This document shows positions 7,212 to 64,000 of a DNA stretch of 64,000 nt, piece by piece. Numbering within the stretch: position 1 is the first letter of the stretch; every line of letters starts with the position of its first letter. The DNA lies in contig OZ244816.1 in assembly GCA_965220255.1 (NCBI GenBank), forward strand, positions 854,083 through 918,082, written 5' to 3'. This DNA is from Dehalococcoidia bacterium. Its GTDB lineage: Bacteria; Chloroflexota; Dehalococcoidia; Lucifugimonadales; VXLM01. Below the pieces are notes generated by a model. The model was not told the DNA's origin. It was given only the letters and a program-made list of their open reading frames with translations, and ran no database searches. Both the position numbers and the translations under genes were made by a program.

Positions 7212-7257
7212 GCGTGCCCTCTCTTTGCCTAGAACTTTGCTAAACATGGATGCCAGA

Positions 7258-17693: not shown

Positions 17694-18209
17694 TCAGCCA
17701 TCTCCTATCCTTTCATCTATGACTCCACCGCCTGCTAAGCGCATGGCGGGCAGCGGTTTCGTCCCCCGCGAGAGGAGGAAAGCCGTATCTTCCAAGTTCG
17801 CCAGTACCTTGTGAGCGGCAGCGTAGAATGTGGCCCACTCATCGCCATTAATTCCCCTCACAAGCAGGTCGTTACTCTCCCTCAGTTCCTCGGCAAGGGT
17901 CCGCAACAGTGCCTGTCCGTCCTTCGTCAAGCTGAGTCGAACCGGTCGCCGGTCGCTCGACAGGCGCTGCCTGTGGATGAGCTTCCTATCCACAAGCTTG
18001 CTCACCAGACGGCTCATGACCGAAGCATGCACGTGGAAGACCCGCGACAGTTCCGTCACAGTATTCGCCTTCTCTCTGTGACAATAGTCGAGGATCCCAT
18101 ATTCCAGCGGCGAGAGCATGTATGGCGCGAGGCTCAAATCCGCCGCCCTGGCCGCTGCTATATTCAGACTGGTTATCAAATGCCCGATATCTTCATGTTC
18201 GTCTGCCAT
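17694..18209 (-). CDS. MarR-family transcriptional regulator
   Basis: wHTH (TVTELSR…SRLVSKLVDRKLI) and DRR wing motif; start set at MADEHE. Confidence 0.88.
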   Translation of the reverse strand: MADEHEDIGHLITSLNIAAARAADLSLAPYMLSPLEYGILDYCHREKANTVTELSRVFHVHASVMSRLVSKLVDRKLIHRQRLSSDRRPVRLSLTKDGQALLRTLAEELRESNDLLVRGINGDEWATFYAAAHKVLANLEDTAFLLSRGTKPLPAMRLAGGGVIDERIGDG

Positions 18210-18350
18210 CAGGCCACTCCGCCGCTCCGTCGCGCCTTTCGTCGCACTGTCAATTCGTTCTGTATACACGCTCGAATCCGTCACTGGTGTGATTTCGGTT
18301 TCAGGCACATCTGCCTTCAACAACGATTGCTTTTGAACTTATTGTGGGAT

Positions 18351-18393
18351 ACAATACATGTATACAAAAAGATTGTCAAGAGCATCTTTTGTA
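18351..18393 (-). promoter_or_regulatory. TTGACA-17-TATTGT promoter overlapped by palindromes (candidate MarR operator)
   Basis: -35 at 18374-18379, -10 at 18351-18356; palindrome ATACATGTAT at 18354-18363; inverted repeat aaaagat/atctttt around the -35. Confidence 0.6.
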
Positions 18394-18818
18394 CGTGGAT
18401 ATGTTGACGGTCGCAAGTACATCGTCCATGAGCAGGCGCGCCGCGTCCTCTGTGCCTTTCTACTCGGATGGCACGGTCGCCTTGCACGGATTGAAGAAAC
18501 CGACTGGGCGGTGGAGCAGCGAGCCGGGACGCATCCTCACCGGGCGTAGGTGTGGGCCTTGTGGTGCTCATTGGTCGCTCCTGTCCGCCGTTTGCGGACA
18601 ATGGCACGGACCAATAGTTGCCGCCTCATTACGCACCTTACAGAACCATGAACGTGTGTTACAAAACTGTGAACGCTTCCCACGCGGGATACAGAGAGTC
18701 GGCTAGGAGCGCCAACGCGCGTCATCCATTCAAATTGAGAATAATTGGTTGGAGTTCCCCATCCGGTCGATGGGCTCGATACCTATACCGCCCCCACTCC
18801 GTCCCCTTACGTGAGAAA

Positions 18819-19283
18819 ATGGCAAACCCAGAACAGCAAAAGCAACACAGTCGCAGCCACCCCGCAGATATGGGAAGAGGCATGGAAGGGCTGGTGAACG
18901 TTCTCAACAAGGGAGTGGCGGACGAGGTGAGGCCCTACGACCTCACCCCTGTGGAGTTCAACCTCTTGAGAACTTGCATGGAAGTGAACGAGTGCACCGC
19001 TACCGATCTGGCAAAGGTGCTGCCTGTCGACGCATCCCGCATAAGTCGCATAGTGACCAAGCTGGTTGACATGGACCTGCTTATCAGACGCCGTCTGCGC
19101 AGTGACAGGCGCACCGTGATGTTGCGACTGTCCGACAATGGCAAGGAAATGACTTCGATGCTCTCCGGCCGCATACAGGAATACGAAGCCAAGCTCTTGG
19201 AGGGCATTAGCGAGGAAGAGAAGAGCCTAATGGCCTCCATCACTTTCAAGATTCTTGCCAACCACGCCGCCATGGAGCAGTAG
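18819..19283 (+). CDS. MarR-family transcriptional regulator
   Basis: LTPVEFNLL…TATDLAKVLPVDASRISRIVTKLVDMDLL…DRR; paralogous to 17694-18209. Confidence 0.9.
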   Translation: MANPEQQKQHSRSHPADMGRGMEGLVNVLNKGVADEVRPYDLTPVEFNLLRTCMEVNECTATDLAKVLPVDASRISRIVTKLVDMDLLIRRRLRSDRRTVMLRLSDNGKEMTSMLSGRIQEYEAKLLEGISEEEKSLMASITFKILANHAAMEQ

Positions 19284-33039: not shown

Positions 33040-33150
33040 TGACTGTTCAGACTTCGTAGGAGCGCTCAACGCACGCAGCCACCGTCATACCCGCTTTCGC
33101 GGGTATCCATAGGGGTGGGGGATGTTCACACCATAAATTTTGAACACTCA
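33040..33150. mobile_element. ~110-bp MITE-like element (ACTGTTCAGA ends) with an internal REP
   Basis: tgactgttcagactt…ttttgaacactca; near-identical to 55617-55726. Confidence 0.75.
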
Positions 33151-36573: not shown

Positions 36574-37296
36574 TTAGCGCGCAGCCTTCCATCGGAGAAG
36601 GAGCAGCTTCCACATTGCTTCGATCATGATGCCCAGCGACATCTTTGACTTCCCCATCGTTCGATCCATGAAGATTATCGGGTGTTCGACGACCGTATAG
36701 CCCAAGTGCTCGCAGGTGTAGTTGACCTCCGCCTGAAAGCCGAATCCCGCGCATCGTATCTGGGTGAAGTCAATCGAACGCAGAACGCCTTCGCGGAAGG
36801 CCTTGAAACCTCCGGTGGCGTCCTTGATCTTCACTCCCGTAACGGTCCGTATTCCCCAGTTGCCGCCGGAACTGATGAACCTCCTCAAGATGCCCCAATG
36901 TTCGTCCACACCACCATCTTCCACGTAGCGTGAACCGACAACCACGTCGGCGTCCTCGAGGGCGGCAATGAATTGAGGGACGTACTCAGGCTGATGCGAA
37001 AGGTCGGCGTCCATCTGCACGATAAAGTCAGCCCCGGCATCAAGCGCGTGGGAGAACCCGGCGATGTATGCCGGGCCCAGTCCCTCCTTCTTGTGTCGCT
37101 GGACCAGTTCGACCCGTCCGTCGTACCCCTCGGCAAGTCGCTGGGCGACCTCGCCTGTGCCGTCGGGGGACCCGTCGTCCACGACGATGACGATAAGGCC
37201 CGGGAGATTGAGCGCGAACAGTCTCTCCGCCAACACAGGAAGGTTCTCGGCCTCGTTGTACGTCGGCACCACGACGGCAATTCTGACGTTGTCCAA
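36574..37296 (-). CDS. Polyprenol monophosphomannose synthase-like GT2
   Basis: PTYNEAENL, VDDGSPDGTG, MDADLSH, DATGGFK, FMDRTMGKSKM. Confidence 0.9.
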   Translation of the reverse strand: MDNVRIAVVVPTYNEAENLPVLAERLFALNLPGLIVIVVDDGSPDGTGEVAQRLAEGYDGRVELVQRHKKEGLGPAYIAGFSHALDAGADFIVQMDADLSHQPEYVPQFIAALEDADVVVGSRYVEDGGVDEHWGILRRFISSGGNWGIRTVTGVKIKDATGGFKAFREGVLRSIDFTQIRCAGFGFQAEVNYTCEHLGYTVVEHPIIFMDRTMGKSKMSLGIMIEAMWKLLLLRWKAAR

Positions 37297-37328
37297 TTCA
37301 GTAACTCCTGTACCCGAAGATCGCTTTT

Positions 37329-38051
37329 CTAGCGATAGGCCCCGGTAACACCGCGCCAGCGGGTCAAAACTGCGTCCTTCACCATCCGCACCGAATCGAG
37401 AACGGGGCTGATCTTGCTGGAAGGCTCGTGATGCCAGTCTATGGCCATTTCAAGTATGGACGCCCCCCGCAGCTTGGCGATAAACAGCACCTCGACGTCG
37501 AACCCGAATCCGGTTGCCCGCTGCCGCTTGAAGACCTCGTCGGCCACTACGCCGCGAAACATCTTGAAGCCGCACTGTGTGTCCTGGAATCCCCCGACGG
37601 CAACAAGACGAACGACCCAGTTGAAGACCCTTCCCATCAGGTGCCGCATAAGCGGTTCGCCGAACCTCCTCGCGCCCTCCGTCTGGCGGGAACCGATGAC
37701 GATGTCGTAACCCTCGGCCATGCGCCTAATGAAATCGTCGAGGTGTCCCACGGGCATGGACATGTCTGCGTCGCACATGAAGCGGAGTTCTCCCGTCGCT
37801 TGGAGCATCCCATGACGGACGGCCAGGCCCTTTCCGGCCGCCGGCAGCACTTCCAGGCGAACCTGCGGGACCTCCGACGACAAGGATTCGACGACGGCTG
37901 AGGTCGCGTCGTCGCTGCCGTTGTCCACGACGAGTATCTCCCATTCGAACCGGCGCGATGAGAGGTAGCCTACGAGCTTCTCCAACGTTGGCCCGATGCG
38001 CCGTTCTTCGTTGTACGCCGGAACGATAACCGATAGGAACGGCTTCGCCAA
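37329..38051 (-). CDS. Dolichyl/polyprenyl-phosphate glucosyltransferase-like GT2
   Basis: PAYNEERRI, GKGLAVRHG, CDAD, DTQCGFK, GFDVE. Confidence 0.88.
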   Translation of the reverse strand: MAKPFLSVIVPAYNEERRIGPTLEKLVGYLSSRRFEWEILVVDNGSDDATSAVVESLSSEVPQVRLEVLPAAGKGLAVRHGMLQATGELRFMCDADMSMPVGHLDDFIRRMAEGYDIVIGSRQTEGARRFGEPLMRHLMGRVFNWVVRLVAVGGFQDTQCGFKMFRGVVADEVFKRQRATGFGFDVEVLFIAKLRGASILEMAIDWHHEPSSKISPVLDSVRMVKDAVLTRWRGVTGAYR

Positions 38052-43074: not shown

Positions 43075-43146
43075 TAACTGTTCAGACTTCATGAGACCGC
43101 TCTACACACACAGCCCACCGTCATTCCTGCGAAGGCAGGAATCCAG
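43075..43146. repeat. Left arm + REP of the ACTGTTCAGA MITE-like family
   Basis: taactgttcagacttc…ccgtcattcctgcgaaggcaggaatcca; no matching right end. Confidence 0.75.
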
Positions 43147-43192
43147 AAAGCCCGGTCAGTCGAGAATACGGCCTCATCACACCCAATTGGTC

Positions 43193-45205: not shown

Positions 45206-45340
45206 AACTGTTCAGACTTCACGCGAGCGCTCTACACACAGCCCACCGTCATTCCGGCGAAGGAACGTCACCCCGTACCACGATACGGGGCCGGAATCCA
45301 AAAGGGCGGGGAGGTTTCTCTCACCAAGTCTGAAACAGTT
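45206..45340. mobile_element. ACTGTTCAGA MITE-like element whose REP carries a 27-bp insert
   Basis: TIRs aactgttcagactt / aagtctgaaacagtt; insert at 45264-45290. Confidence 0.8.
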
Positions 45341-50434: not shown

Positions 50435-50469
50435 AATGCCCCGGTTGGGACTACCCACCGGGGTATTTT
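50435..50469 (+). terminator. korAB terminator
   Basis: aatgccccggttggg-acta-cccaccggggtatttt. Confidence 0.7.
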
Positions 50470-50486
50470 CGTATAGGAGAGGCGTC

Positions 50487-50635
50487 ACTGTTCAGACTCC
50501 GTGAGAGCGCTTGACACACACAGCCCACCGTCATTCCCGCGAAAGCGGGAATCCAGAGTCGGGTACACATATACTCTCTATGAGGAATAGATTCCCGCTT
50601 TCGCGGGAATGACGGGAAATGTCAACACAACCTAG
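50487..50635. repeat. Composite element: ACTGTTCAGA left arm + inverted REP doublet + GAAATGTCAACACAACCTAG tail
   Basis: REP arms 50528-50553 and 50590-50615 with a 36-bp spacer. Confidence 0.85.
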
Positions 50636-50644
50636 CCGATTTCG

Positions 50645-51869
50645 CAGGGCAATCGCATCTTATTGGGCAAGGACCTTGAGTAGATAGTCATTGTCCCAGG
50701 CGGCGTCTTTTCGTTTGCCGGCGATGCTGCGCTTGGTGGACTTTTCGGCCTTGAGCAGATTCAGGGCCATGCGACGTAGCACAGAGAAGTTCTCTGCCCC
50801 ATTCCCGTTACGCACCCGGCATCCATCCTCATTGAACGTCACGTCCAGTGACCAGTGCAATTGGTTCTCTATGCTCCAGTGGCTGCGCACCGCGTTGAGC
50901 AAGACGCTCGCATCGTTTGGCAAGCTCGATATGTAGTAGCGCGACTCCACCCTCGTCTTGCCACCGACGAGTCGCTCGCCTTCCACCATCACCAACGTAG
51001 TCAACCCCGGCCACTGCCCGCCATCATCTACGTATCTGATGTGGTCGAGGTCGGACACGGCCCAGCATCGACGAGTCTCGACTCGTCCGTGACCCGCATT
51101 TGTCGTCTCGTAGTAGTCGTGGTCGAGACTGTCGAAGCCGGACTTGCGGGCAAGATCGAAGATGTCATGCATATCCTCGTGCAGGCGCCCCTGGTTCTTC
51201 TTGACCGCCAGCACGTAGTCGGCTTTCTCCTGCAGGATCTTCGATGCGACCTCCTTCTGGCAGCCCATGGCGTCGATAGTCACGATGCACCCTTCGACCT
51301 GGAGCATTTCGAGCAGTCGGGGTATTGCCGTGATCTCATTGGAGCGCCCGTCCACTCTGGTCTGTCCGAGTGCTACGCCGCTCGCAGAGGCCCAAGCGCT
51401 GACCATGTGGATCGCATCCTTCCCTATATACCGGTCGTGTGAACGACGCACTCTCTTGCCGTCTATGGCTAAGACGTCACCTTGCAGAACCTCTCGCACA
51501 GCCAACACCCACTCGGTGAAGCAGCGCTCGAACTGCTGAGCATCCAGCCTGGCAAAGACCCTGCCAAAGGTGTCGTGGGATGGAATACCGTTAGGCAGGT
51601 CCAGCATCCTGCGCAGCCAGTCCGCCTTGCGCCTGCCGAACGCCTCCACGTCCACCCAACTGTCCGCACCTGCTATGACACCGCAGAGCGCAATGGTGAG
51701 GATGTCCATTAGAGGGTGGCGTTTGGTGCGGTCAATACGCGGATCGACCAAGCTGCCAAAGTGTTCGGTCAGGGACGCTGTGTCTCTACTCGCCATGGGG
51801 CACTCTCCACATGAGATTGACCCCAATTCTATAACTTGTCTAAGACTTCATTTAGATGCGATTGCCCTG
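50645..51869 (-). mobile_element. Complete ISAs1-family insertion sequence (1225 bp)
   Basis: Perfect 16-bp TIRs CAGGGCAATCGCATCT; 10-bp TSD GCCGATTTCG at 50635-50644 and 51870-51879. Confidence 0.96.
50660..51796 (-). CDS. ISAs1 DDE transposase
   Basis: DPR, GIPSHDTF, AIDGK, SNEITAIP, DAMGCQ, HWSIENQLHW.LDV.F.ED. Confidence 0.96.
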   Translation of the reverse strand: MASRDTASLTEHFGSLVDPRIDRTKRHPLMDILTIALCGVIAGADSWVDVEAFGRRKADWLRRMLDLPNGIPSHDTFGRVFARLDAQQFERCFTEWVLAVREVLQGDVLAIDGKRVRRSHDRYIGKDAIHMVSAWASASGVALGQTRVDGRSNEITAIPRLLEMLQVEGCIVTIDAMGCQKEVASKILQEKADYVLAVKKNQGRLHEDMHDIFDLARKSGFDSLDHDYYETTNAGHGRVETRRCWAVSDLDHIRYVDDGGQWPGLTTLVMVEGERLVGGKTRVESRYYISSLPNDASVLLNAVRSHWSIENQLHWSLDVTFNEDGCRVRNGNGAENFSVLRRMALNLLKAEKSTKRSIAGKRKDAAWDNDYLLKVLAQ

Positions 51870-51931
51870 GCCGATTTCGCCTTCCGGTGGTATATTTTGT
51901 GATTACGATCCGCTAGGTACCGGAGAAGCAG

Positions 51932-53002
51932 ATGGACATCGCGATCACGAAATCACCTACTGCGGGAACACGCCCGAAACCGGCCGACGCCGATCTCGGC
52001 TTCGGCCAGATCCTCACGGACCACATGTTCCTGATGGACTACTCGACCGAGCGCGGCTGGCACAGCCCCCGCATCGAGCCATACCACGACCTGACTCTCG
52101 ATCCCGTAGCGATCGTCCTTCACTACAACCAGCAGGTGTTCGAGGGCCTGAAGGCCTACCACCTGCCGGACGGCGGCATCGGACTCTTCCGACCGGACAA
52201 GAATGTCGAGCGGATGAATAGCTCGACCGAGCGAATGGTGATGCCTTCGTTCGACGCCGAGACCTTCCTGGCCGCAGTGAAGGAACTCGTCCTCCTTGAC
52301 CGGTACTGGCTGCCGACCTCGGAGGGCACTGCTATCTACATCAGGCCGACGATGATCGCAACCGAGGCGGCCCTAGGGGTGCAACCGTCGGAGACCTACC
52401 TATTCTTCATCGTGCTAAGCCCCGTCGGCCCCTACTACAAGGAGGGGTTCAACCCGACGCGAATCTTCGTCTCCGATGAGTACATCCGCGCCGCGCGGGG
52501 GGGCGTAGGCAACGCCAAGACATCCGGCAACTACGGCCCGACCCTGTACGTGTCCGAGGAGGCCAAGGAGCGGGGCTACACGCAGGTCCTCTGGCTCGAC
52601 GCCGTGGAACGAAAGTACGTCGAAGAAGTCGGCACCAGCAACATCTTCTTCGTGATCGACGACGAGCTGGTGACGCCGAGCCTGTCCGGCTCGATTCTCT
52701 CCGGCGTGACGCGCGACTCCGTGATGCAGGTCGCCCAAAGCTGGGACATCGAGGTAACGGAACGTCGCGTCTCGATGGAGGAGGTCGCCGAGGGCTGCCG
52801 GAGCGGCAAGATCACCGAGGCGTTCGCCACCGGAACCGCCGCGGTTGTGTCGCCCATCGGGGAGATCGGCTACATGGGCGAGGACATCCCCGTCGGCGAG
52901 GGCGAGACCGGCCCCCTGGCCCGGCGTCTGTACGACGAGATCGTCGGCATCCAGTACGGCTACAAGGACGACCCCTTCGGCTGGCGGGTGAAGATAGCGT
53001 AG
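51932..53002 (+). CDS. ilvE: Branched-chain amino acid aminotransferase
   Basis: FEGLKAY, YIRP, AKTSGNY, EEVGTSN, GTAAVVSP. Confidence 0.95.
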   Translation: MDIAITKSPTAGTRPKPADADLGFGQILTDHMFLMDYSTERGWHSPRIEPYHDLTLDPVAIVLHYNQQVFEGLKAYHLPDGGIGLFRPDKNVERMNSSTERMVMPSFDAETFLAAVKELVLLDRYWLPTSEGTAIYIRPTMIATEAALGVQPSETYLFFIVLSPVGPYYKEGFNPTRIFVSDEYIRAARGGVGNAKTSGNYGPTLYVSEEAKERGYTQVLWLDAVERKYVEEVGTSNIFFVIDDELVTPSLSGSILSGVTRDSVMQVAQSWDIEVTERRVSMEEVAEGCRSGKITEAFATGTAAVVSPIGEIGYMGEDIPVGEGETGPLARRLYDEIVGIQYGYKDDPFGWRVKIA

Positions 53003-53028
53003 GAAAGGGCCAAGGCCCCTTCCTCTAG

Positions 53029-53592
53029 CTACTCCCTCGGCGTCCTGACGTATTCCTCGAGATACCTCCGCACGATCATGCGAGCGCGGTGCAGACGCGA
53101 CTTCAATGCCGACACGGTGATGTTCAACACCTCCGCCGCCTCCGCGTTTGAAAGGCCCTGAACGTCCCGCAGGACGAGGGCGGCGCGCAGGTCGGGTTCG
53201 AGCAGGCCGATGCCCTCGCGGAGCTTGTCTCCCAGCTCGGAGTCGAGCGCGTCCTTGTGCGGGTTCTTCGTCCAGTCGACGACCTCGACCTCGTCGACGC
53301 CGGTGTGGGTGAGGGTACGGTCCTTCTTGGTCTTCCGCAGGCGCATCAGGGCCGCGTTCGTCGTAATCCGGTAAAGCCAGGTGGTCACGTGGGACTGTCC
53401 CCGGAAGCGGTCGAACGCCCGGTATGCCGACAGGAACGCGTCCTGCGCCACGTCCTCCGCCTCTTGGGTGTTGCCCATGACGCGGTACGCCACGTTGTAG
53501 ACGAAGTCTGCGTGCTGCTCGACGATTGCGTCGAAGTCTTCGGCAACGGTTGCGGGCGTACTCTGTTCCTGGGCGGGTGGAGTCAATGTCAA
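53029..53592 (-). CDS. ECF sigma factor
   Basis: AEDVAQDAF, TWLYRI, LRDVQGLS…KSRLHRAR; start uncertain (up to 53664). Confidence 0.9.
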   Translation of the reverse strand: MTLTPPAQEQSTPATVAEDFDAIVEQHADFVYNVAYRVMGNTQEAEDVAQDAFLSAYRAFDRFRGQSHVTTWLYRITTNAALMRLRKTKKDRTLTHTGVDEVEVVDWTKNPHKDALDSELGDKLREGIGLLEPDLRAALVLRDVQGLSNAEAAEVLNITVSALKSRLHRARMIVRRYLEEYVRTPRE

Positions 53593-53734
53593 TTCCCGAT
53601 TGCCGGTATGCCGATCCGGGCGTCTCGCAACACATCGAACCCAAAGAGGGTCCCTTGCATCCAATTGTATGGGAACCTGCCTCTAAAGCGAAAGCGGGGC
53701 CTCTCCCGAACTGCGGGGTAATACGAGGACGTTC

Positions 53735-54025
53735 ATGTCGTTAACGGGGCTGATAGGACGGCTAACGGCGCTTCTCAAGCGGATGCCGGAGTGCGGCGAG
53801 ATCCGCATGAATGCGTCGGACTACATCGACGGCGATCTGCGGGAGACGCAGGTCGAGTGGATGCGCGTTCACCTTGGCGGGTGCGAGGCCTGCCGGGCGT
53901 TCGTAGATACGCTCGTCGAGACGATTCGGCTTCTGAGAACGATGAAGCGCGAGGAACCCGCCCCTGCAAGCCTAAAGGATGCCATTCGCGGCAGAATCGC
54001 CGAGGAGAGGCGACTGCACGCCTGA
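53735..54025 (+). CDS. Soluble zf-HC2 anti-sigma factor
   Basis: C…DYIDGDL…HLGGCEAC…APASL; no TM helix. Confidence 0.85.
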   Translation: MSLTGLIGRLTALLKRMPECGEIRMNASDYIDGDLRETQVEWMRVHLGGCEACRAFVDTLVETIRLLRTMKREEPAPASLKDAIRGRIAEERRLHA

Positions 54026-54034
54026 TCGGAGACG

Positions 54035-54508
54035 CTATCCGGCGGCGACGTACTTCGATGGACACTTGACGATGACGCTCTGGCTGTAGAACACGCCGTC
54101 GTCGCCGTATGTGCCTTCGAGAATGATCTCGGAGTGCTGATTGAAGAACAGGTCGGGCACCACCCCGTCATGCACTGCCGACAGGGTCTCCGGCCCTTCC
54201 GCGTCCACTAACGTGAACCGGGCAATGGTGGACGATTCCTCGCGGACGAATGAGTCCTGCACGAGCTTGCCGTTCACCCGCACGAGCCGTCCGTCTTCGG
54301 TCGGGCCGATCTCCTTGATCTCGCTGACGGTGTAGAAGTAGACGCTGGCGCTCTGGAATGCCGTGTAGGCGAGGAAGGCAAGAGCGCCTATGATCACTGC
54401 CAGACCAACCGTCACCTTGATGCGATGGGCCGTTCGGCTGGGCTCGGGCGCGGTGAAGGGCACATCCCCCGAAGGCTCTTGGTTTGCGATTGTCTCGTGT
54501 GTCGCCAT
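54035..54508 (-). CDS. ccmE: Cytochrome c maturation protein CcmE (CxxxY type)
   Basis: YFYTVSE, VRVNG, GVVPDLF, KCPSKY. Confidence 0.9.
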   Translation of the reverse strand: MATHETIANQEPSGDVPFTAPEPSRTAHRIKVTVGLAVIIGALAFLAYTAFQSASVYFYTVSEIKEIGPTEDGRLVRVNGKLVQDSFVREESSTIARFTLVDAEGPETLSAVHDGVVPDLFFNQHSEIILEGTYGDDGVFYSQSVIVKCPSKYVAAG

Positions 54509-54530
54509 CCTGTACCGGTCCCCTGTATTT

Positions 54531-54875
54531 CTACGAACTCGTGCCGTCCCCGTCTTCGCGCTCCCGAAGCGCCTGTCTCAATGCCTCGATGTCGCGCCGC
54601 ATGTCGCGCTGGCGCCGGGACATATAGAAAGCATACCCGAAGAATCCGGCCCACGTAAGTATATAGACTGCAAAGAGGAATGGAAGGTTCGCCTCGGGAT
54701 CGGAGCCGGACGCCTGTGCAAACGATGAAGACGAGGCCATGTGATCGACGATGCCGCTTCCGGCGTAGACGGGGCCGGTGAGGACGGTCGCGATGACCAG
54801 TCCCAACAGGGCTATCGGAGCGGCCTTGGCGAGGGATGGCGTCCTACGCAGCATACTGAAAAATCTCGTCGACAT
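54531..54875 (-). CDS. ccmD: CcmD-like protein with an N-terminal signal-peptide-like extension
   Basis: Lies between ccmC and ccmE; FLFAVYILTWAGFFGY + charged coil. Confidence 0.7.
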   Translation of the reverse strand: MSTRFFSMLRRTPSLAKAAPIALLGLVIATVLTGPVYAGSGIVDHMASSSSFAQASGSDPEANLPFLFAVYILTWAGFFGYAFYMSRRQRDMRRDIEALRQALREREDGDGTSS

Positions 54876-55575
54876 CGGTCTCCGCTCTCCTCAGGCTGTA
54901 ACGTTCGATAATCAGGTAGACGAATAGAAGTATAAAGGCTGCGAGCGAGACGAGCACGGCGACGAGCATTCTCGGATCGAGGGCGTCGCTATCGGCAGCG
55001 GGGCCGATGACGAGGTTGGGATGCGTCGAGCGCCACAGCTCGGCGGCGTAGTAGATGATTGGTGCGTCAATCGCTCCAATCAGGGCGAGCACCGCCCCGT
55101 ATCGAGCGCCCTGAGAACCCTTCGGCCCGAACGCCCGCAGCATCAGGTAGCTGGCATAGATGAACCAGAGAACCAGTGTCAGCGTCAATTTCGGGTCCCA
55201 CGTCCACCAGACTCCCCAAACAGGCTTGGCCCAGATGGCGCCGGTGACGATGGCAATGGTGCAGAAGACGAGGCCCACCTCAGCCGATGCGTAGGCGAGA
55301 GCGTCGGACTTCCGGCCCTTGCCGAAGAGATGGACGCCGCTGGCCACTGCGACGACGACCACCGACAAGAGAGCAAGTATGGCGATCGGAACGTGGAAGT
55401 AGAAGATGCGCTGCGACACGCCAAGATTGGCGTCGGTAGGCACATAGAAGAATACGAGGTACAGAGTGACCGCCATCAATATGGCGCCGGCGACGATGAG
55501 TACGTCTCGGAAGAGGTCGCCCATGCTGCGCGGATTCACAGGATGTCCGACCGGCGTGAGCGTCTCCTGAGGCAT
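54844..55575 (-). CDS. ccmC: Heme exporter protein CcmC
   Basis: RIFYFHVP, TGAIWAKPVWGVWWTWDPKLT, W..HP. Confidence 0.93.
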   Translation of the reverse strand: MPQETLTPVGHPVNPRSMGDLFRDVLIVAGAILMAVTLYLVFFYVPTDANLGVSQRIFYFHVPIAILALLSVVVVAVASGVHLFGKGRKSDALAYASAEVGLVFCTIAIVTGAIWAKPVWGVWWTWDPKLTLTLVLWFIYASYLMLRAFGPKGSQGARYGAVLALIGAIDAPIIYYAAELWRSTHPNLVIGPAADSDALDPRMLVAVLVSLAAFILLFVYLIIERYSLRRAETDVDEIFQYAA

Positions 55576-55616
55576 GGTGAAAATATACCACAGCGGCAAT
55601 TGCGTAGGAAGTATTG

Positions 55617-55726
55617 TAACTGTTCAGACTTCGTGAGGGCGCTCAACGCACACAGCCACCGTCATACCCGCAAAAGCGGGTATCCATAGGGGTGGGGGAT
55701 GTTCACCCATGAACTCTGAACAATTA
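55617..55726. mobile_element. 110-bp MITE-like element (ACTGTTCAGA ends) with an internal REP
   Basis: taactgttcagactt / aactctgaacaatta (13/15 inverted match). Confidence 0.8.
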
Positions 55727-55782
55727 CCACCACTGGTACGTAAGATCGAAGACACACCTGCCAACTCTGATAGAATTGCCGC

Positions 55783-56145
55783 ATGGAGCGGCAGACGTTC
55801 GAGCGGCTGGTGCGGGTGGCGCTGGGCACGATACCGGAGGACTTCCGGCGACGCCTTGAGAATGTCGACATCATCGTCGAGGACTGGCCTTCACCCGATC
55901 AGCTTGCCGGTCACCTCGTGGACGACTCGCACCTGCTCCTCGGCCTCTATGAGGGAGTGCCCCTCACGGAGCGGGCCGACTACCTGGCCATCCTTCCCGA
56001 CCGGATCACTATCTTCCAGAGGTCGATCGAGTCCATATGCGAGTCGAACGAGGAGATCGTCGAGGAGATACGCATGACGGTCATCCACGAGGTCGCTCAC
56101 CACTTCGGGATCGACGACGAACGGCTGCATGAATTGGGGGTGTAG
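55783..56145 (+). CDS. Minimal zincin metallopeptidase (DUF1025-like)
   Basis: LLGLYEGVPL, PDRITIFQ, HEVAHHFG. Confidence 0.9.
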   Translation: MERQTFERLVRVALGTIPEDFRRRLENVDIIVEDWPSPDQLAGHLVDDSHLLLGLYEGVPLTERADYLAILPDRITIFQRSIESICESNEEIVEEIRMTVIHEVAHHFGIDDERLHELGV

Positions 56146-56148
56146 GAG

Positions 56149-57354
56149 CTAAGTACCGGCTGACGGGGACTTGGGTGCGGCATATCTCATGACCGCGACC
56201 ACTGGGACGGCCGCCAGCACGACGGCGGCGGCTACGAGGAACGGGAGTCCGACGAGATCGTTGCTGAGGCTTGCGAGTCTCCCGCTGCCTGATGCTCCCA
56301 CTACTACCCCCAGCGAGTAGACGGCGTAAAAGACTCCGAAGGCCATTCCTCGCCTGTTGGCGCCGGTTGCTCCCGCCACGAGCGCCGTGGCAGCCGGGAA
56401 GACCAGCCCGTACCCCAGTCCAAAGACGGCCATGCCCACGACAACACCCCCGTAGCCTTCGAGGACGCCCAGAAGCGCCAGTCCGGCGGCAATAACTGTC
56501 AGGCCGAGCACCAGGGGGCCGAATCGACCGTACCTGTCGCTCGCGCGGCTGATCGGACTCGCCATGACGAGCATTGCCACGAGCGCGTAGATCCCGAAGC
56601 TGTAGCCTGAACGGGCCGCGCTCTGCCCCTGCTCTTCCAGCATCAACGGCAGGTAGGTGACAAGCGCACCTATGCCGACCGTGATGGCAAATGCAGCGGC
56701 GTAGGCCGGCCAGAGGGCGGTCTGTCTCTGCGTGGATTCTCTTGGGCCGTCCGAATTGTGCGTCTCGACCTCCCGGGAATCGTCACGGGCGATGACCAAG
56801 AACGCTATCAGCGTGATGAGAATGAACGCCATATCGACATAGAAGACGATGTCCGCGCCCCATCTATCGCGAATGATTCCGGCGGCGGGTGGGCCGATCA
56901 GGGCTGCGACGGCTATCAGCGCCCCCGTTATGCCCATCGCGCGACCCCAGCGGTCGGAGGGCGTCCTATCGCCGATGATGGAGAACGCGCCCGGAGCGAG
57001 CACTGCCGCCCCTATGCCGTGCATGGCCCTCGCCACCATCATCTGCTCCGGCGTCTGGACGAGCGAGTAGCTGAACACGGCGATGACGGTTATCGCCATA
57101 CCGAGAAGCATGGGAGTGCGGCGTCCCCACCTATCGAGAATGTACCCGGCGCCGAGGTTCCCGAACAGGTTGGTGAATGAGTAGGCCGCCACGATCAGGC
57201 CGACGAGCGCTGCCGACGCTCCAAGGCTTTCAGCGTAAGGCGCGATGGTGGGGAACTGGACGAACAGGTCGAAGAATGCGGCGAACACCACGAGCCGCGC
57301 GGCCCAGATGGTGTAACGTGCGATGCCTGCCGAGTGAAGTGTGCTTGAAGCCAT
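56149..57354 (-). CDS. MFS transporter
   Basis: GYILDRWGRR motif A; about 12 TM helices. Confidence 0.9.
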   Translation of the reverse strand: MASSTLHSAGIARYTIWAARLVVFAAFFDLFVQFPTIAPYAESLGASAALVGLIVAAYSFTNLFGNLGAGYILDRWGRRTPMLLGMAITVIAVFSYSLVQTPEQMMVARAMHGIGAAVLAPGAFSIIGDRTPSDRWGRAMGITGALIAVAALIGPPAAGIIRDRWGADIVFYVDMAFILITLIAFLVIARDDSREVETHNSDGPRESTQRQTALWPAYAAAFAITVGIGALVTYLPLMLEEQGQSAARSGYSFGIYALVAMLVMASPISRASDRYGRFGPLVLGLTVIAAGLALLGVLEGYGGVVVGMAVFGLGYGLVFPAATALVAGATGANRRGMAFGVFYAVYSLGVVVGASGSGRLASLSNDLVGLPFLVAAAVVLAAVPVVAVMRYAAPKSPSAGT

Positions 57355-57429
57355 ACGTGCCGGTTCGCCTACTGTGAACCAGTGTATAGGATGCCGTCGC
57401 CGTGGGCTAGGAATAGGGGGCGGAGAACA

Positions 57430-57490
57430 CCCTCATCCCCGTATCGAGTACGGGGCAGGCTCTAGCCCTATCCCGCGAACGGGAGAGGGG
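57430..57490. repeat. CCCTCA…GGGAGAGGG repeat with one inserted mini-hairpin cassette (57437-57463)
   Basis: ccctcat[ccccgtatcgagtacggggcaggctct]agccctatcccgcgaacgggagagggg. Confidence 0.8.
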
Positions 57491-57555
57491 ATGTCCGCGC
57501 GTTGGCATGGCTGTTATGTCGGAAAGGAACCGGCGCTCGTCAGGGCGAAATGGGA

Positions 57556-59403
57556 CTACCTCAATACCCTGCCATCCCCCTCGCGACGGGTCACTCGCTC
57601 GCGGTCGAGCTGTTCAAGCAGGGCGAGAGCGTACTTGCGGCTGGTGCCGAACATGTCGCGCACGTCGCCGACTGTGATGGGGCCAGCCGTCCTGATGTGC
57701 TGTGCAACCGCGTCCGCCATCCTCTCGTAAGCCGACGCGGCGAACACGACCGAATCACCCGCGCGCACCACACGCCCCTCATCCACCAGCAATGAAAGAA
57801 TCTCCGTGTCCGGCACCGGTTCAGTTGGAGGAGAGTAGGGCTGCGCCTCGAGCATTGCGAGGTAGTCCTGCACCGTCCGCTCCTGGCTTGGCGTCAGCTT
57901 CCGCGTGTGACCGGCAAGATAGACCACCGGCCCATCCTCAACAACCGTCCCTTTCTCCTGCAGGACACGGAGCGCATCGGGAAAGTCAGCGGGTGTGGAC
58001 CTTGTGCGACTGCGGAGCTCCTCCTTGGGCGCGCCCTTTCTCAGCGGGTAGGACTCGTGGTAGGCGGAAAGGAACTCCAGCGCCCTCTTCTCCAGCGCCT
58101 GCCAACCACTCTTGGAATAGACCGATTTTCCCGAACGGAGCAGCACGATGTCCCCATTTCTCGCCATTCCCTCAAGCTCCGAAGTCACGGTCTCGGCTTC
58201 CATGTTGGCGCGGCTGGGAAGATCGTCCACATCTGCCGGCTCTGTGCGTTCGATTGTGTTGAGGAGGATGTCCTGCGCCGTGCCCTCCTCCATCATGGCA
58301 AGTCGTTCGAGGGTCGGTTGGTGATTGCGGCGATGCCGCTGTGCGTGCGTGTCCACGACGCTGCCGCCGCCCAGCGTGGCGCGGTTGGACCTGACCACGA
58401 AGAAATCGTCCTTGACTATCGCGATGGGCGTCTCGAACTTCAGCTGCGCCCACACTGACTCCCCCGGCTCCGCGCGCTGCCGTTCCAGAAGCCGCAGCCG
58501 TGCGATGGCCTCGCTGCTTCCCGTATGGACCGTCAGCCGCATGTTGTGACGGAGCGGACGGGGGACATCCTCGATGACCCTCAGGTGGACGTCCACAGCG
58601 TCCGTTGGGTTCAGCCAGCCCGGGACGGTCAGCACGTCTCCGCGTTGGAGGTCGTCCTGGGACAGGCCCACGATGTTGGCTGCCACCCGCGAGCCCGGCG
58701 GCGCCGCTTCCAGCTTCCTCTTGTGGCTCTGCAGGCCGCGAATCCTCGATTCGAGCCCCTTAGGGAGCACCTCGACCTCCTGGCCGACGCTCAGGATACC
58801 GTCGACCAGCGTGCCGGTTACTACGGTGCCGAAGCCGGACATCGTGAACGCGCGGTCGAGCGCGAGGCGCGGGCGTCCGAGGTCCTTGCGTGAGTGAGTA
58901 TCCTGGAGAAGAGCCTCGACCGTCTCCCTCAGATCCGGCAGACCCTCTCCCGTGGTGGCCGAAACCGGAATGACCGGTACGCCAGCGAGCGTCGTGCCTT
59001 CAAGGACCTCTTGGACTTCCGCCGTCACGAGCTCAAGCCACTCGTCGTCCACGAGGTCGCGCTTGGTGACGGCCACGAGGCCGCGACTGACGTTCAACAG
59101 ATCGAGGATGGCGAGGTGCTCTCGCGTCTGCGGCATCACCGACTCGTCGGCGGCGACCACGAGCAGCGCCAGGTCGATGCCGCCCACTCCCGCGAGCATG
59201 TTGTTGACGAACCGCTCGTGCCCCGGCACGTCCACGATGCTGACCTCGCTGCCGTCGGAGAGAGGCATCCACGCGAAGCCAAGGTCGATGGTCAGGCCGC
59301 GGTCCTTCTCCTCTTGGAGACGGTCGGGGTCTATGCCGGTGAGGGCATGTACGAGCGTCGACTTGCCGTGGTCGACGTGTCCGGCCGTACCGATTACGTG
59401 CAA
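57556..59403 (-). CDS. selB: Selenocysteine-specific elongation factor
   Basis: GTAGHVDHGKS, RGLTIDLGF, DVPGHE, C-terminal GTSRKYALALLE.LD. Confidence 0.96.
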   Translation of the reverse strand: MHVIGTAGHVDHGKSTLVHALTGIDPDRLQEEKDRGLTIDLGFAWMPLSDGSEVSIVDVPGHERFVNNMLAGVGGIDLALLVVAADESVMPQTREHLAILDLLNVSRGLVAVTKRDLVDDEWLELVTAEVQEVLEGTTLAGVPVIPVSATTGEGLPDLRETVEALLQDTHSRKDLGRPRLALDRAFTMSGFGTVVTGTLVDGILSVGQEVEVLPKGLESRIRGLQSHKRKLEAAPPGSRVAANIVGLSQDDLQRGDVLTVPGWLNPTDAVDVHLRVIEDVPRPLRHNMRLTVHTGSSEAIARLRLLERQRAEPGESVWAQLKFETPIAIVKDDFFVVRSNRATLGGGSVVDTHAQRHRRNHQPTLERLAMMEEGTAQDILLNTIERTEPADVDDLPSRANMEAETVTSELEGMARNGDIVLLRSGKSVYSKSGWQALEKRALEFLSAYHESYPLRKGAPKEELRSRTRSTPADFPDALRVLQEKGTVVEDGPVVYLAGHTRKLTPSQERTVQDYLAMLEAQPYSPPTEPVPDTEILSLLVDEGRVVRAGDSVVFAASAYERMADAVAQHIRTAGPITVGDVRDMFGTSRKYALALLEQLDRERVTRREGDGRVLR

Positions 59404-59506
59404 CGCTCACGCCCCCTCTCTGTATCTCTCCCCCGCCAGCGGGGGAAAGATTATGGAATCCCTACGAGAGCATAGCAAACCCGGATGCCGCGCGGTACGC
59501 GGCACG

Positions 59507-60703
59507 TCAGTCGAAGAAGCGGACGAATACCTCGTTGCTCAGGAACCTGCCCTTGTCGGTCAGGCGTATGCTCCCTTTGGCCACCTCTACGAGTCCGGTG
59601 GGTTGAAGCTCGCCCAACTCCTCTCGATAGACCTCCAACGGGGATTCTCCAAAGCGGGTCTCGAATTCCGTGATGGATACTCCGGTATCAAGTCGCAGTC
59701 CGAGCATCATCGTCTCGGCCATTTCGAGTGATCCATCAATGTACTCGACGGTGTCTACCACGGGTACCTGCCTGATGGCGGCTTGGGCCTCGTCACGGGA
59801 CCCGCTTATAGGGATCGGAGAGCCGGAATGTTCTTGCAGCCTCCTGACGTACTCGCGCGGGGGCTTGAGGTTCGAGAATCGGTGGTTGGCGAGAGAGGAG
59901 TGCGCCCCAGGCCCCACGCCCAAGTACGGCTCATTGCGCCAATAGACGATGTTGTGCAGGCCCAGCTTGCCGTCCGCCGCCCAGTTGGATATCTCGTAGT
60001 GACGGTAGCCAAAGTCTCCAAGCTGCTGCTCGGCCGCCGCGTACATGTCCGCGGCGAGGTCGGGATCGGGCATGGGCAGCGTCCCCTGTGAAACGGAATG
60101 CTCCATCGGCGTGCCGCCTTCGAGCGTCAAAGCGTAGAGGGACACGTGCGGCGGTTTGAGGTCAGCCGTTCTCGCAAGCGTCTCCCGCCAGTGATCAATG
60201 GTCTGGTGAGGCAGGCCGTACATCAGGTCGATGCTGACGTTGTCGAACCCGGCATCTAGCGCCATGCGATACGCCTCGACGGCGTCCGCCGCAGTGTGGC
60301 GTCGACCCAGCAGCGTGAGCAGGCCATCGTCGAAACTCTGAACTCCGATGCTGAGCCTGTTGATACCGGATTCGAGGAAATTACTCAGCTTGTCAGGGGT
60401 AAAGTCTCCCGGATTGGCCTCTAGGGTGACCTCCGCGTCCTCCGTGAAGGGAAACGACTCGGAGATAGTCGCCATCAGCGCCGAGATGTCACCGGTCGGC
60501 AAGTAGGAGGGCGTGCCGCCGCCGAAGAAGACGGTGCGAACGGGGGGATTGCCGAGCATACCGCCCCACAGCTCGATCTCAGTCCTCAGCGCGGACACGT
60601 AGTCGGGTATGAGCGACTCGATCTTGGCGTACGTGTTGAAGTCGCAGTACGGGCACTTCGTATCGCAGAAGGGAATGTGGACGTAGAGGGCTATGGGCTG
60701 CAT
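59507..60703 (-). CDS. hemW: Radical SAM heme chaperone HemW
   Basis: LYVHIPFCDTKCPYCDFN, GGGTPS, YEISN, HNIVYW; alternative start at 60742. Confidence 0.92.
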   Translation of the reverse strand: MQPIALYVHIPFCDTKCPYCDFNTYAKIESLIPDYVSALRTEIELWGGMLGNPPVRTVFFGGGTPSYLPTGDISALMATISESFPFTEDAEVTLEANPGDFTPDKLSNFLESGINRLSIGVQSFDDGLLTLLGRRHTAADAVEAYRMALDAGFDNVSIDLMYGLPHQTIDHWRETLARTADLKPPHVSLYALTLEGGTPMEHSVSQGTLPMPDPDLAADMYAAAEQQLGDFGYRHYEISNWAADGKLGLHNIVYWRNEPYLGVGPGAHSSLANHRFSNLKPPREYVRRLQEHSGSPIPISGSRDEAQAAIRQVPVVDTVEYIDGSLEMAETMMLGLRLDTGVSITEFETRFGESPLEVYREELGELQPTGLVEVAKGSIRLTDKGRFLSNEVFVRFFD

Positions 60704-60772
60704 GAGGTCGCGGTCATTTGGTGTTCCGTTTCGCAAGTTCATCGAATAAGTGCGACAACAATCGACGCCCAT

Positions 60773-60880
60773 CCGTCATTCCCGCGAAAGCGGGAATCTA
60801 TTCCCCGTAGAAAGTATATGTGTCCCCAACTCTGGATTCCCGCTTTCGCGGGAATGACGGGAAATGTCAACACAGCCTAG
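60773..60880. repeat. Inverted REP doublet + GAAATGTCAACACAGCCTAG tail
   Basis: Perfect 26-bp arms 60773-60798 and 60835-60860 with a 36-bp spacer. Confidence 0.9.
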
Positions 60881-61275
60881 AACAATTTGGGCTGGTAGTA
60901 CTTCCCGTCGTTCGTAGTGTTGTGCTTCGGGTTCCTCCCAAGTTGGCGACGATGAGAACCGAGTTTAGCAGCCTCGACGCGTTCAGCGGACTTCCGGGGT
61001 ATAGCCTTCGTCTGGACTACCAGCTTGTCTCCGCGTCCGAGCTTTCCCGTCTTCTTGTGCTCGGCCGCTCGCCGTGACGGATTATTCGTGGTGCCAATAT
61101 ACTTCGTGGTGCCCTTGCGGCTCTTGATCGCATACTGGACCGTCTTCCCGGATTTGATCTGCCCCTTAGGCCGAGTGCTACTACGCCTGCTTGAACTTCG
61201 CCGCGCGCTACTTCTGCTTCCAGAGATCCGTCGAGACCCGCCTCTGTAGCCTCCTCTCCCAAAGCTTCTAGCCAT
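60877..61275 (-). CDS. GIY-YIG nuclease-like protein with an Arg/Ser/Gly-rich N-terminus
   Basis: VQYAI…KYIGTTNNPSRRAAEH…AERVE…PKHN; SD AAAGGAG. Confidence 0.75.
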   Translation of the reverse strand: MARSFGRGGYRGGSRRISGSRSSARRSSSRRSSTRPKGQIKSGKTVQYAIKSRKGTTKYIGTTNNPSRRAAEHKKTGKLGRGDKLVVQTKAIPRKSAERVEAAKLGSHRRQLGRNPKHNTTNDGKYYQPKLF

Positions 61276-61395
61276 GGTCAAACTCCTTTCGGCCCATATC
61301 TGCGTGAACATCTCGATATCAAGTTCGGGTCATTATAGGGTCAACGAAAACGCAGTAAAACCCGACGGAAAACGGCCTGCCGTCTCAATCGTCCA

Positions 61396-62487
61396 TCACA
61401 GATTAAACAGCACGTGCATAATCTCGCCGTCCTGCACGACGTAGTCCTTCCCCTCCTGGCGGAGGATGCCGCGTTTCCGTGCCTCGGCGAAGCCGCCGCA
61501 CTCGACCAAGTCATCGAACGGCACGACCTCCGCGCGGATGAAGCCCTGCTCGAAGTCGGTGTGTATCTTCCCTGCCGCCCTCGATGCCGTCGTGCCCTCC
61601 CGGATCTCCCACGCGCGCACCTCGTCGTCTCCGATGGTCAGGAAGGTGATCAGTCCAGCGACGTCGTACGAGAGCCGGATGATCCTGTTCATCCCCGACT
61701 CTCCCGCGCCAACCGCCTCCCTGAACTCGGCTTCGTCCGCCGCGTCCATCTGCGCGAGGTCCATCTCCAGTTTGCCGCATAGGGCAGCGGCTCGGACGGA
61801 CGGTCCTTGAACCGTCTCGTCAAGCCGTTCTTCGAGCTCGACTGCCTCATCGAGATCGCTCTCGTCGATGTTGAGCAGGACGATGAGAGGCTTCGCCGTA
61901 AGGAACTGGAACCCGCGAAGGCGCTGGGCCTCCTCGGTCGTGAACTGCTGGTCGCGGATGGGCGTCTCTGCTTCGAGATGCCCCTTGATGCTCCCTAGCA
62001 GATCGCGCTCCTTCTGTATGGCGTCGCGCTCGGATGCCTTCGCGCCCTTGGAGCTGTCGTCCAGTCGCTGAAGACGGCGCTCAAGGATTTCGAGGTCCGA
62101 GAAGAGAAGTTCCAGCATCATGTTTTCGACATCTCGGAAGGGATCGACCGAGCCGTCAACGTGGAGCACGGCCTCGTCCTTGAAGGCCCGTGCAACGATG
62201 AGCAGCGCGTCGACCCGCTGCAGGTCGTTCAGGTACTGGCCCGATATCCCTCGTATCCTGCCGGAAGGGCTTGCCGGAGGTGGTATGTCGACGTAGCTCA
62301 CCGTCGCAGGCACCCGTTTGCGGGGTTCGTACAGGTCAGCGAGGCGGTCCAGGCGTGCGTCCGGCACGGCAGCGACGCCGACATTCGGCGCTCCACCATA
62401 CGACGCCACATCCGCCCGCCCGCCCGTCAAAGCGTTGAACACGGTGGTCTTCCCGCTCCCGGGCAGACCTATGATGCCGATTTCCAT
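61396..62487 (-). CDS. ychF: Redox-regulated ATPase YchF
   Basis: GIIGLPGSGKTT, LTAKP, AAGKIHTDFEQGFIRAEV, EGKDYVVQDG. Confidence 0.95.
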   Translation of the reverse strand: MEIGIIGLPGSGKTTVFNALTGGRADVASYGGAPNVGVAAVPDARLDRLADLYEPRKRVPATVSYVDIPPPASPSGRIRGISGQYLNDLQRVDALLIVARAFKDEAVLHVDGSVDPFRDVENMMLELLFSDLEILERRLQRLDDSSKGAKASERDAIQKERDLLGSIKGHLEAETPIRDQQFTTEEAQRLRGFQFLTAKPLIVLLNIDESDLDEAVELEERLDETVQGPSVRAAALCGKLEMDLAQMDAADEAEFREAVGAGESGMNRIIRLSYDVAGLITFLTIGDDEVRAWEIREGTTASRAAGKIHTDFEQGFIRAEVVPFDDLVECGGFAEARKRGILRQEGKDYVVQDGEIMHVLFNL

Positions 62488-62538
62488 GGGTGTGTTTCTC
62501 TGTGGAGAATGGCAGGAGGCGCCGGTGACTCGGAAGAA

Positions 62539-62916
62539 CTATCTCTGGGAATCGCCCTTCGGAGCGTCCTCGTCCTCGACGTGGCGATACTGGCCTTCGA
62601 TGACCTTCTCCCGTGGTTGGCCGGCGCCGGCTTCCGTGGGAGAGTCGGCGGGACGTCCGGTGAGATATTCATTCAGGACGCTGCGGGGGGTCATCAGCAG
62701 GAATGAGGCTAGAGCAACGAGGATGACGATGAGGTCGTCGGTATGCCCCAGGATCGGGAAGAGGTCGGGCAGAAGGTCGATGGGCAGGACAAGGTAGATG
62801 ACGGCGACCGGTATGATCAGCTTCAGGCGAAGGGGCACTCGCCGGTCGAGCATCAGCCTGAAGACCAGACCGGGAATCCTGGTAAGCATCAACACGCGTA
62901 GAATCGGCATTGCCAT
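62539..62916 (-). CDS. YkvA/DUF1232 membrane protein
   Basis: YLVLPIDLLPDLFPILGHTDD. Confidence 0.85.
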   Translation of the reverse strand: MAMPILRVLMLTRIPGLVFRLMLDRRVPLRLKLIIPVAVIYLVLPIDLLPDLFPILGHTDDLIVILVALASFLLMTPRSVLNEYLTGRPADSPTEAGAGQPREKVIEGQYRHVEDEDAPKGDSQR

Positions 62917-63260
62917 GAGTCCGCGCTCCTTACCGTTACGATACCATAACACTGGCCGTGGAGGCCTCATGCCGTGTCATAGACTCCCACCCAATTTGAC
63001 CACCAAGAACGCTTGGCCTACGATGACCATGTCGCACGAGCGGACGCCGGAAAACGCGATCGGACCCACGAATCCGTATGAGACAATCTGCGAACTACTG
63101 CAAGAGATTCGGCCCCAGAGGAATTCTTCTCAAACCGTCTCATCCGCCCGTCGTCTGTCGGATGCGTTTGCCCGAAACAGCTTCAACACGGCCCTCCGGC
63201 ACGAGCGAAAAGGAGCGAGACATATTGAGAACAAGAGAAACTAGCGGGGAAATAACGGCG

Positions 63261-63350
63261 TCTCAGACCATCTCATTTTCTCAAATGATCTCATCGCCTC
63301 AGACCATCCCACTTTCTCAAACGCTCTCATCGTCTCAAACCGTCTCACGC
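63261..63350. repeat. Five tandem 18-bp units (TCTCAnnnnnTCTCAnnn)
   Basis: Units start at 63261, 63279, 63297, 63315, 63333; a lone copy lies at 63128-63145. Confidence 0.8.
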
Positions 63351-63377
63351 CTGAAGGAGGCTTCGCGCCAACACTCT

Positions 63378-63432
63378 CCGTCATTCCCGCGAAAGAAATT
63401 CGGCCCGTACCGGGATCCAAGACGGGAATCCA
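63378..63432 (+). repeat. REP with a 27-bp insert (63396-63422)
   Basis: ccgtcattcccgcgaaag[aaattcggcccgtaccgggatccaaga]cgggaatcca. Confidence 0.8.
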
Positions 63433-63493
63433 CTTGGTTCACGTGGCGAGAGAACGTCGGCATCACAATACATCAGCCATCGACGAGGCCTGA

Positions 63494-64000
63494 ATGATCT
63501 ATTCGCTGTCGGGCGACGACGATTTCACGATCCGCGAGACCCTCGCCGGACTCAAGGAAGGCGTCGGCACACCGGACGTGCGCGACGTGAATATCGTCAT
63601 GCTCGACGCGAACGTGTCCCTTGACGAGTTCACCGCAAACGCCTCCACGGTGCCCTTCCTGGCCGACAAGCGGCTCGTGATGGTCGAAGGGCTGCTGGGC
63701 AAGTTCGAGCGAGGCGCAGGTCGACGTTCCGGCTCCGGCGCCAACGGCAGGAAGGAGCTTTCGGAGTGGGAGCGCCTTCCCATTGTCCTGGCGAACGTGC
63801 CCGAGACGACGGACGTGGTATTTGTCGACGGGCGCCTGGGCGCCTCGAACCCGCTGCTCAAGCTGATTCAGGAACGGGTCACGACAAAGACCTTCAATCC
63901 TCCCGGTCCACGGGAGCTTCAGATGTGGATCGCCGACCGCGCGCGGAGCGAGGGAGCCGAGATCGACGGTCGGGCCGTGCAGCTGCTGGCTGAGACCATC
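63494..64000 (+). CDS. holA: DNA polymerase III delta subunit (runs off the window)
   Basis: MIYSLSGDDDF…TVPFLADKRLVMVEG…WI…IDGRAVQLLAETI. Confidence 0.88.
   Translation, partial: MIYSLSGDDDFTIRETLAGLKEGVGTPDVRDVNIVMLDANVSLDEFTANASTVPFLADKRLVMVEGLLGKFERGAGRRSGSGANGRKELSEWERLPIVLANVPETTDVVFVDGRLGASNPLLKLIQERVTTKTFNPPGPRELQMWIADRARSEGAEIDGRAVQLLAETI

Follow-up and report, generated by a model that had tools for sequence, protein, structure and literature searches.

Inverted spacers between REP arms in truncated copies of a putative IS5-type miniature element from Dehalococcoidia

A stretch of 64,000 nucleotides from a Dehalococcoidia bacterium (assembly GCA_965220255.1, contig OZ244816.1, positions 854,083 to 918,082; referred to as the window) contains two doublets of repetitive extragenic palindromic sequences (REPs). 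The first doublet, copy A, consists of a REP arm at 50528-50553 (+), a spacer of 36 nt at 50554-50589 (+) and a second arm at 50590-50615 (-). Corresponding parts of copy B are located at 60773-60798 (+), 60799-60834 (-) and 60835-60860 (-). On their right side both doublets pass into a short tail (50616-50635 in A and 60861-60880 in B, + strand in both) that terminates with CTAG (50632-50635 and 60877-60880). Copy A is adjoined by an ISAs1-family insertion sequence (IS) at 50645-51869 (-; NF033564, E 5e-128). Copy B is followed by a small GIY-YIG gene at 60877-61311 (-; PF01541, E 8e-5), which lies between ychF and hemN and whose stop codon overlaps the CTAG.

A preliminary description had reported identical inverted arms, a common right-hand tail and a spacer flipped between the two copies, and all three were recovered. 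The arms of each copy are complementary at 26 of 26 positions and stand 36 nt apart, and the tails of A and B differ at one position. When spacer B is reverse-complemented, spacer A matches it at 31 of 36 positions, whereas only 10 of 36 agree in direct alignment; a match of at least 31/36 is expected by chance with probability of 5e-14 (binomial, base make-up of the spacers). No copies of tail or spacer beyond A and B were found in the 64-kb window, and arms are matched there 10 times. Each copy forms a single long hairpin (z about -7.8). Taken by itself, the spacer lacks structure (z 0.07 for copy A), and the 26-bp hairpin forms whichever way the spacer points. The only Rfam match in the window is a tRNA.

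Genomes related to the window were sought through hemN, the nearest relatives of which are found in Dehalococcoidia/Chloroflexota. The best hemN relative (77% identical; locus L001) belongs to a genome designated G001 that is syntenic with window positions 51867-64000, and 15 genomes of its family formed the comparison set. Arms of the doublets display a CGTC tag, an 8-bp stem, a 4-nt loop and a CCA-type tail (the first arm of A and the second arm of B being CCA-tailed), which places them among REPs of the CGTC-1 or NTS (SRM) type. In by-eye comparison with the 28-nt NTS consensus (PMC11893778), one arm agrees at 28/28 positions and the other, with tail CTA, at 27/28; the complete match is given by the last 25 nt of the first arm of copy A together with the next 3 nt. 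As usual for REPs, copies are numerous, extragenic and often arranged as inverted dimers, and one arm pattern is matched 56 times in G001.

In G001, the doublet is part of a larger element of about 150 bp. It consists of a terminal repeat, a REP, the 36-nt spacer, an inverted REP, a linker of about 33 nt and a second terminal repeat. The two ends can thus be told apart: the short end abuts a REP, while the long end carries the linker. The same terminal repeats delimit an 813-bp element with two open reading frames (ORFs) in genome G019, which is matched in two halves by the IS5 transposase model NF033580 (113 and 107 bits, cut-off 110) and is present there in 14 near-full-length copies, query included. 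In G010, only the ends of this IS5-family element were seen, at contig edges. Tails of copies A and B are terminal inverted repeats of this type; the tail of A equals the right end of the IS5-family element at L277. Of 48 readable ends, 44 continue from the terminal repeat into CTA and 35 into CTAG. As regards target duplication, empty sites contain a single CTAG and the window copies are one-ended; TA, 3 nt or 4 nt may be duplicated.

[quoted passage not shown] Copies A and B, each retaining one end, accordingly classify as remnants of an approximately 150-bp IS5-family MITE of Dehalococcoidia. Since the ends are shared, the MITE was presumably moved by the IS5 transposase into CTAG/TA sites. 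The ISAs1 element beside copy A was also considered as mobiliser and was ruled out by its different ends and its own 10-bp target duplication (50635-50644 / 51870-51879). The same IS5 ends further enclose at least one other interior (L242-L285 in G015, G016 and G019), comprising another, imperfect REP pair. Among its 24 copies with distinct flanks, 17 share an identical 25-nt interior stretch, suggesting a recent burst. These 24 copies are all in one orientation and were excluded as a control because the search pattern sees only that orientation. Pattern scans of metagenome contigs gave 0 matches.

With the full element at hand, the flanks of the window copies can be interpreted as well. The doublets had been described correctly, but it had escaped notice that the tail is an IS5-family terminal inverted repeat and that the left flanks derive from two other repeated elements. 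Where the long end of copy A would be expected (50487-50527, +), there is the left half of an element belonging to F1, a second family of REP-bearing MITEs; the same 40-nt end also occurs at 33043, 43078, 45208 and 55620 and is followed by a REP each time. The corresponding position in copy B (60728-60772, +) is occupied by F3, a third repeated element, the end of which runs into the REP and has further matches in G001, G010 and G016. (F1, F3 and the types C and T used below are labels coined in this analysis.) Four F1 elements of the window (33042-33145, 43077-43150, 45207-45337 and 55619-55727) have their own terminal repeat and interiors that vary between copies, and some of their REPs have an additional hairpin within the loop.

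Next, we compared spacer orientation relative to the ends of the element. A copy was termed type C (as copy B) if its short end lies on the CAG side of the spacer, and type T (as copy A) if it lies on the opposite side. All counts cover doublets among the matches listed, two window copies included. At least 60 doublets carry this spacer family; 10 of the 60 could not be oriented and are outside all counts, and the remaining 50 comprise 32 C and 18 T. Twenty-two more lack one complete end and are outside the strict set of 28 copies with both ends complete, which consists of 21 C and 7 T. Both orientations exist within single genomes (C/T: 7/2 in G001, 3/1 in G010, 5/4 in G019). The proposed inversion between REP arms is therefore borne out by two-ended relatives. 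Together with the fact that, of the two ends, both window copies retain the short one only, this means that the spacer truly is inverted relative to the element frame.

Two rival explanations bear on this conclusion. The full element might be symmetric, with the tail at both ends, and each copy might have lost a different one, which was the model named in the preliminary description as the one that would overturn inversion. It is true that full-length copies bear the terminal repeat at either end. The ends nevertheless differ by the linker of about 33 nt, and both window copies possess the linker-less short end. Among all 29 two-ended copies (21 C, 8 T), 0 are symmetric, neither short/short nor long/long, and in L115 and L130 the spacer is flipped between two intact ends, which leaves this model with a practically negligible probability. 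Alternatively, the flip could be an artefact of assembly or library preparation at the 88-bp hairpin. Logan contigs of the window-bearing runs stop at REPs, so the orientations seen in the window come from the one assembly; contigs of X21, X22 (same sample, share 0.99), X1 and X2 break at every REP and bridge neither doublet, the listed joints coming from other REP copies. Yet both orientations are found in three other assemblies, one of them with a 3.3-Mb contig (G019) and one with k113, which exceeds the doublet, in its contig name, and orientations track sequence subfamilies. We consider an artefact extremely unlikely.

To estimate how often the spacer has turned, trees were constructed from spacer and linker (86 columns) for the strict set (28 rows) and a wider set (37 rows). 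A single clade of T copies was rejected by the approximately unbiased test (p-AU 4e-6 with 28 rows, 6e-5 with 37 rows, 0.004 with linker alone). The 28-row tree implies 4 orientation changes (bootstrap 4-5), 2 of them forced by a starred branch; in the 37-row tree there are 5, with 3 forced by starred branches. Moreover, a T copy of G001 shows 6 differences to the nearest C copy, compared with 24 to the nearest T copy of G019. Flips are accordingly recurrent; with trees of this length and support, the safe reading is that they took place more than once, with orientation far from randomised.

Orientation changes are nevertheless fewer than in shuffled data: 4 against a mean of 6.2-6.3 in the strict set (9-10 of 500 shuffles as low) and 5 against 9 in the wider set (0 of 500). 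In a young, near-identical subfamily from G015, G016 and G019, all nine copies, two of them orthologous, are type C. Likewise, orthologous pairs with shared flanks in different genomes agree in four cases out of four (three C/C, one T/T); the flank matches of L147/L209 and of the two neighbours in L196 were judged non-orthologous and not counted. On these grounds, flips are rare and inherited.

The suggestion that the segment might still switch is not supported by this analysis, as orientation is clustered on the tree and constant in the young copies and orthologous pairs. A live phase-variation switch, in which frequent spacer inversion would alter expression of a neighbour such as hemN, is a very unlikely account. 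Its attractions are that arms have stayed perfect (no mismatch in 26 of the 40 orientable doublets that have standard arms), that copy B is flanked by the GIY-YIG gene and by hemN on the same strand, and that Correia elements are reported to invert (cited in PMC10969869). However, orientation is inherited, the hairpin forms in both orientations, and, being missing from orthologous sites at both loci (see below), the MITE does not qualify as a conserved control element. A scan limited to sigma-70-like promoters found none at loci A and B, and a Pfam scan of 64 of the 169 listed window ORFs gave no match to invertase, integrase, resolvase or IS110. The features that distinguish invertible switches, namely a linked recombinase, randomised orientation and a promoter or coding part in the segment, were not found in these scans and counts. 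The flip looks like a rare accident between identical mirror repeats and not like a working on/off switch.

Further, we examined the sites of insertion in other genomes. None of the orthologous sites examined, 14 for locus A and 15 for locus B, contains the MITE; in seven reverse-oriented B loci the empty site was judged from alignment coordinates only. Empty sites contain a single CTAG exactly where each short end stops at present, which at locus B is the stop codon of the GIY-YIG gene (CTAG in empty sites of G008, G011, G015, G016 and G017). Locus A is also bridged by a contig of run X2, without the MITE and without ISAs1. In G001, the site orthologous to A harbours an F1 element beside the same CTAG, and the site orthologous to B has the F3 flank with a single REP at the same place. 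Along the simplest path, the MITE would have inserted beside a resident REP-bearing element at each locus, and deletion between two directly repeated REPs would then have removed its long end; the left arm of copy B (60773-60798) is accordingly probably the resident REP of the F3 element. Copy A would come from a minority T-type donor and copy B from a majority C-type donor. Most likely, then, their orientations were inherited from two pre-existing subfamilies.

The 10-bp duplication of ISAs1 overlaps the last base of CTAG at locus A, and this IS arrived there after the MITE or independently. ISAs1 is intact, and its contig depth of about 3-4x that of the flanks in X21/X22 suggests that it is probably multi-copy. 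The gap at 50460-50640 (orthologues L346-L359), situated behind a terminator downstream of an oxidoreductase beta-subunit gene, is a hot spot, with different REP modules in the window, G001, G006 and G015. At locus B, the GIY-YIG gene was considered as a part of the element and ruled out, because it occupies this position in 6 of 15 family genomes that lack the MITE; as a neighbour, it is older than the insertion. This gene has 72 homologues, mostly unnamed, and no NCBIfam match; the N-terminus of its product is rich in Arg, Gly and Ser. Between hemN and ychF it has been gained or lost within the family, and G001 has a single REP instead, as if the gene had been deleted at the REP.

The explanation to which we assign a probability of about three in four is that the window copies are truncated IS5-family MITEs, whose spacers are passively flipped at the REP arms, whose two subfamilies co-exist due to transposition and whose long ends were deleted. 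Because the arms are perfect 26-bp inverted repeats, the spacer can turn between them, and a passive host process might achieve this occasionally: inter-strand template switching of the polymerase, or recombination or gene conversion at the arms. Transposition would then copy each new orientation, giving rise to two subfamilies side by side. Template switching between perfect arms is known to invert a spacer and leave the arms unchanged, as described for yeast genes in PMC8604942, and loop inversions are also reported from bacterial rRNA (PMC8794818).

Several points weigh against this explanation. Spacer inversions documented in the yeast study (PMC8604942) are far under 36 nt, involving 2-5 substituted bases and, in table rows, spacers of 3-5 nt, and template switching and conversion both fit our data alike. 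No full copy of the IS5 element was seen in G001, where only end-sized matches occur, and the window contains none. Trees are short and weakly supported (86 columns; starred branches 1/23 in the 28-row tree), recombination between copies violates the tree model, and clustering in the strict set is modest, with 9-10 of 500 shuffles as low. Finally, one T-type relative and three C-type ones have spacers with 0 differences to that of copy A, which makes an in-place flip at locus A possible.

Flips might also be by-products of cassette exchange among dispersed copies, in which symmetric arms accept a donor spacer either way and nicks by a single-strand nuclease of Ssn type, specific for these REPs, perhaps initiate the process. 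In favour of exchange, the same frame contains other cassettes, with a different interior between the same arms (L117) or no spacer (L116), and hybrids composed of short end, doublet and F1 half exist in both orientations (L118, L137 and copy A). Small GIY-YIG genes have REPs within about 300 nt in G001, G010 and G019, and SsnA is reported to cut single-stranded NTS (PMC11893778). On the contrary, products of symmetric single crossover number 0 among the 29 two-ended copies, and the closest T copies share the spacer and linker subfamily with their C neighbours (6-7 differences), as a flip within one element predicts. Promotion of recombination by Ssn here is putative, and the GIY-YIG genes are only candidate members of cd10448; a nick-driven route via Ssn-like GIY-YIG nucleases would be no more than a possibility. 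Taken together, cassette exchange is an unlikely source of the flips. Ssn-like genes with nearby REPs are those at L370, L371, L372, L375 and L381 (G001, G010 and G019), the G019 copies being C-terminally truncated or altered in appearance. A more ambitious scenario, which we regard as doubtful, would have IS5-type MITEs spread CGTC/NTS REPs whose arms are active exchange points, with nicks of resident Ssn-type nucleases driving flips, swaps and fusions of MITE families. Dehalococcoidia would then possess a modular shuffling system in which spacers still turn measurably.

The remaining part of the window offers a few other observations. Two very long, repeat-rich ORFs at 1827-7286 (-) and 8211-17351 (-) encode 1819 and 3046 aa, probably surface proteins, and contain 12-bp Pro/Thr-type tandem repeats and duplicated blocks. 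Two MarR genes in opposite directions are located at 17694-19283, and at 36574-38051 (-) two family-2 glycosyltransferase genes, each of 240 aa, lie side by side.

If it were a switch, the doublet would be the smallest kind of invertible element; the evidence favours a neutral, slow event. Regarding passive flips of a mobile element, inversion of a 36-nt spacer between perfect 26-bp arms is recorded here naturally in many copies, and its rate can be estimated from them. CGTC/NTS REPs are said to lack a transposase. Being cargo of an IS5-family MITE offers them a concrete route of movement and touches a question raised in PMC3733652. Fusions at shared REPs, furthermore, represent clear cases of MITE families being joined. 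It is the MITE as carrier and mixer of CGTC REPs that seems worth following.

A literature search, with subscription papers and supplements outside its scope, returned no account of this element or of flipped REP-dimer spacers. Nevertheless, every component is of a known kind: an IS5-derived MITE, a CGTC/NTS dimer, mosaics resembling neisserial intergenic mosaic elements (NIMEs), spacer inversion and inversion of the Correia type. One of the closest similarities concerns CGTC-1 REP dimers as described by Di Nocera et al. (2013, PMC3733652), which share the CGTC tag, an 8-bp stem starting with AT, a 4-nt loop, the CCA tail and inverted homodimers whose conserved spacer falls within 20-100 bp. 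Some CGTC-1 dimer families lie within larger palindromes according to the same paper. Here, in contrast, a MITE with IS5-type ends has the dimer as cargo. Such ends, CTA(G) junctions, a non-coding derivative of about 150 bp and near-identical recent copies at unrelated sites are in agreement with IS5-family ISs and MITEs (NF033580). Unlike the IS itself, this derivative has an unrelated interior with REP modules, and at least two interiors occur on the same ends.

Neisserial dRS3/NTS sequences and NIMEs (PMC1797815, PMC11893778) are comparable in that the arm fits the NTS consensus and that inverted arms enclose a low-GC spacer, as in dRS3-RS-dRS3. NIMEs also form mosaics at repeats (PMC1797815), and small REP-flanked GIY-YIG genes are present in Dehalococcoidia relatives. 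Neisserial repeats are arranged in long arrays, whereas dispersed single doublets in a transposable frame are found here; neither "inversion" nor "MITE" appears in the main text of the Ssn paper (PMC11893778). The Correia element of Neisseria gonorrhoeae (PMID 27902415, as cited in PMC10969869 and PMC5874624) is likewise reported to undergo inversion within inverted repeats of a MITE. Correia elements, however, carry promoters and have been proposed for phase variation; in the present case only the inner spacer is turned, and no promoter was found. Finally, inversions of spacers and loops by template switching, as described in PMC8604942 and PMC8794818, resemble our doublets in perfect arms that remain unchanged, in a turned spacer and in being recurrent and reversible. 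Those cases affect a few bases in single-copy genes or rRNA, while here 36 nt are turned in an element that is mobile, so that each flip would found a subfamily.

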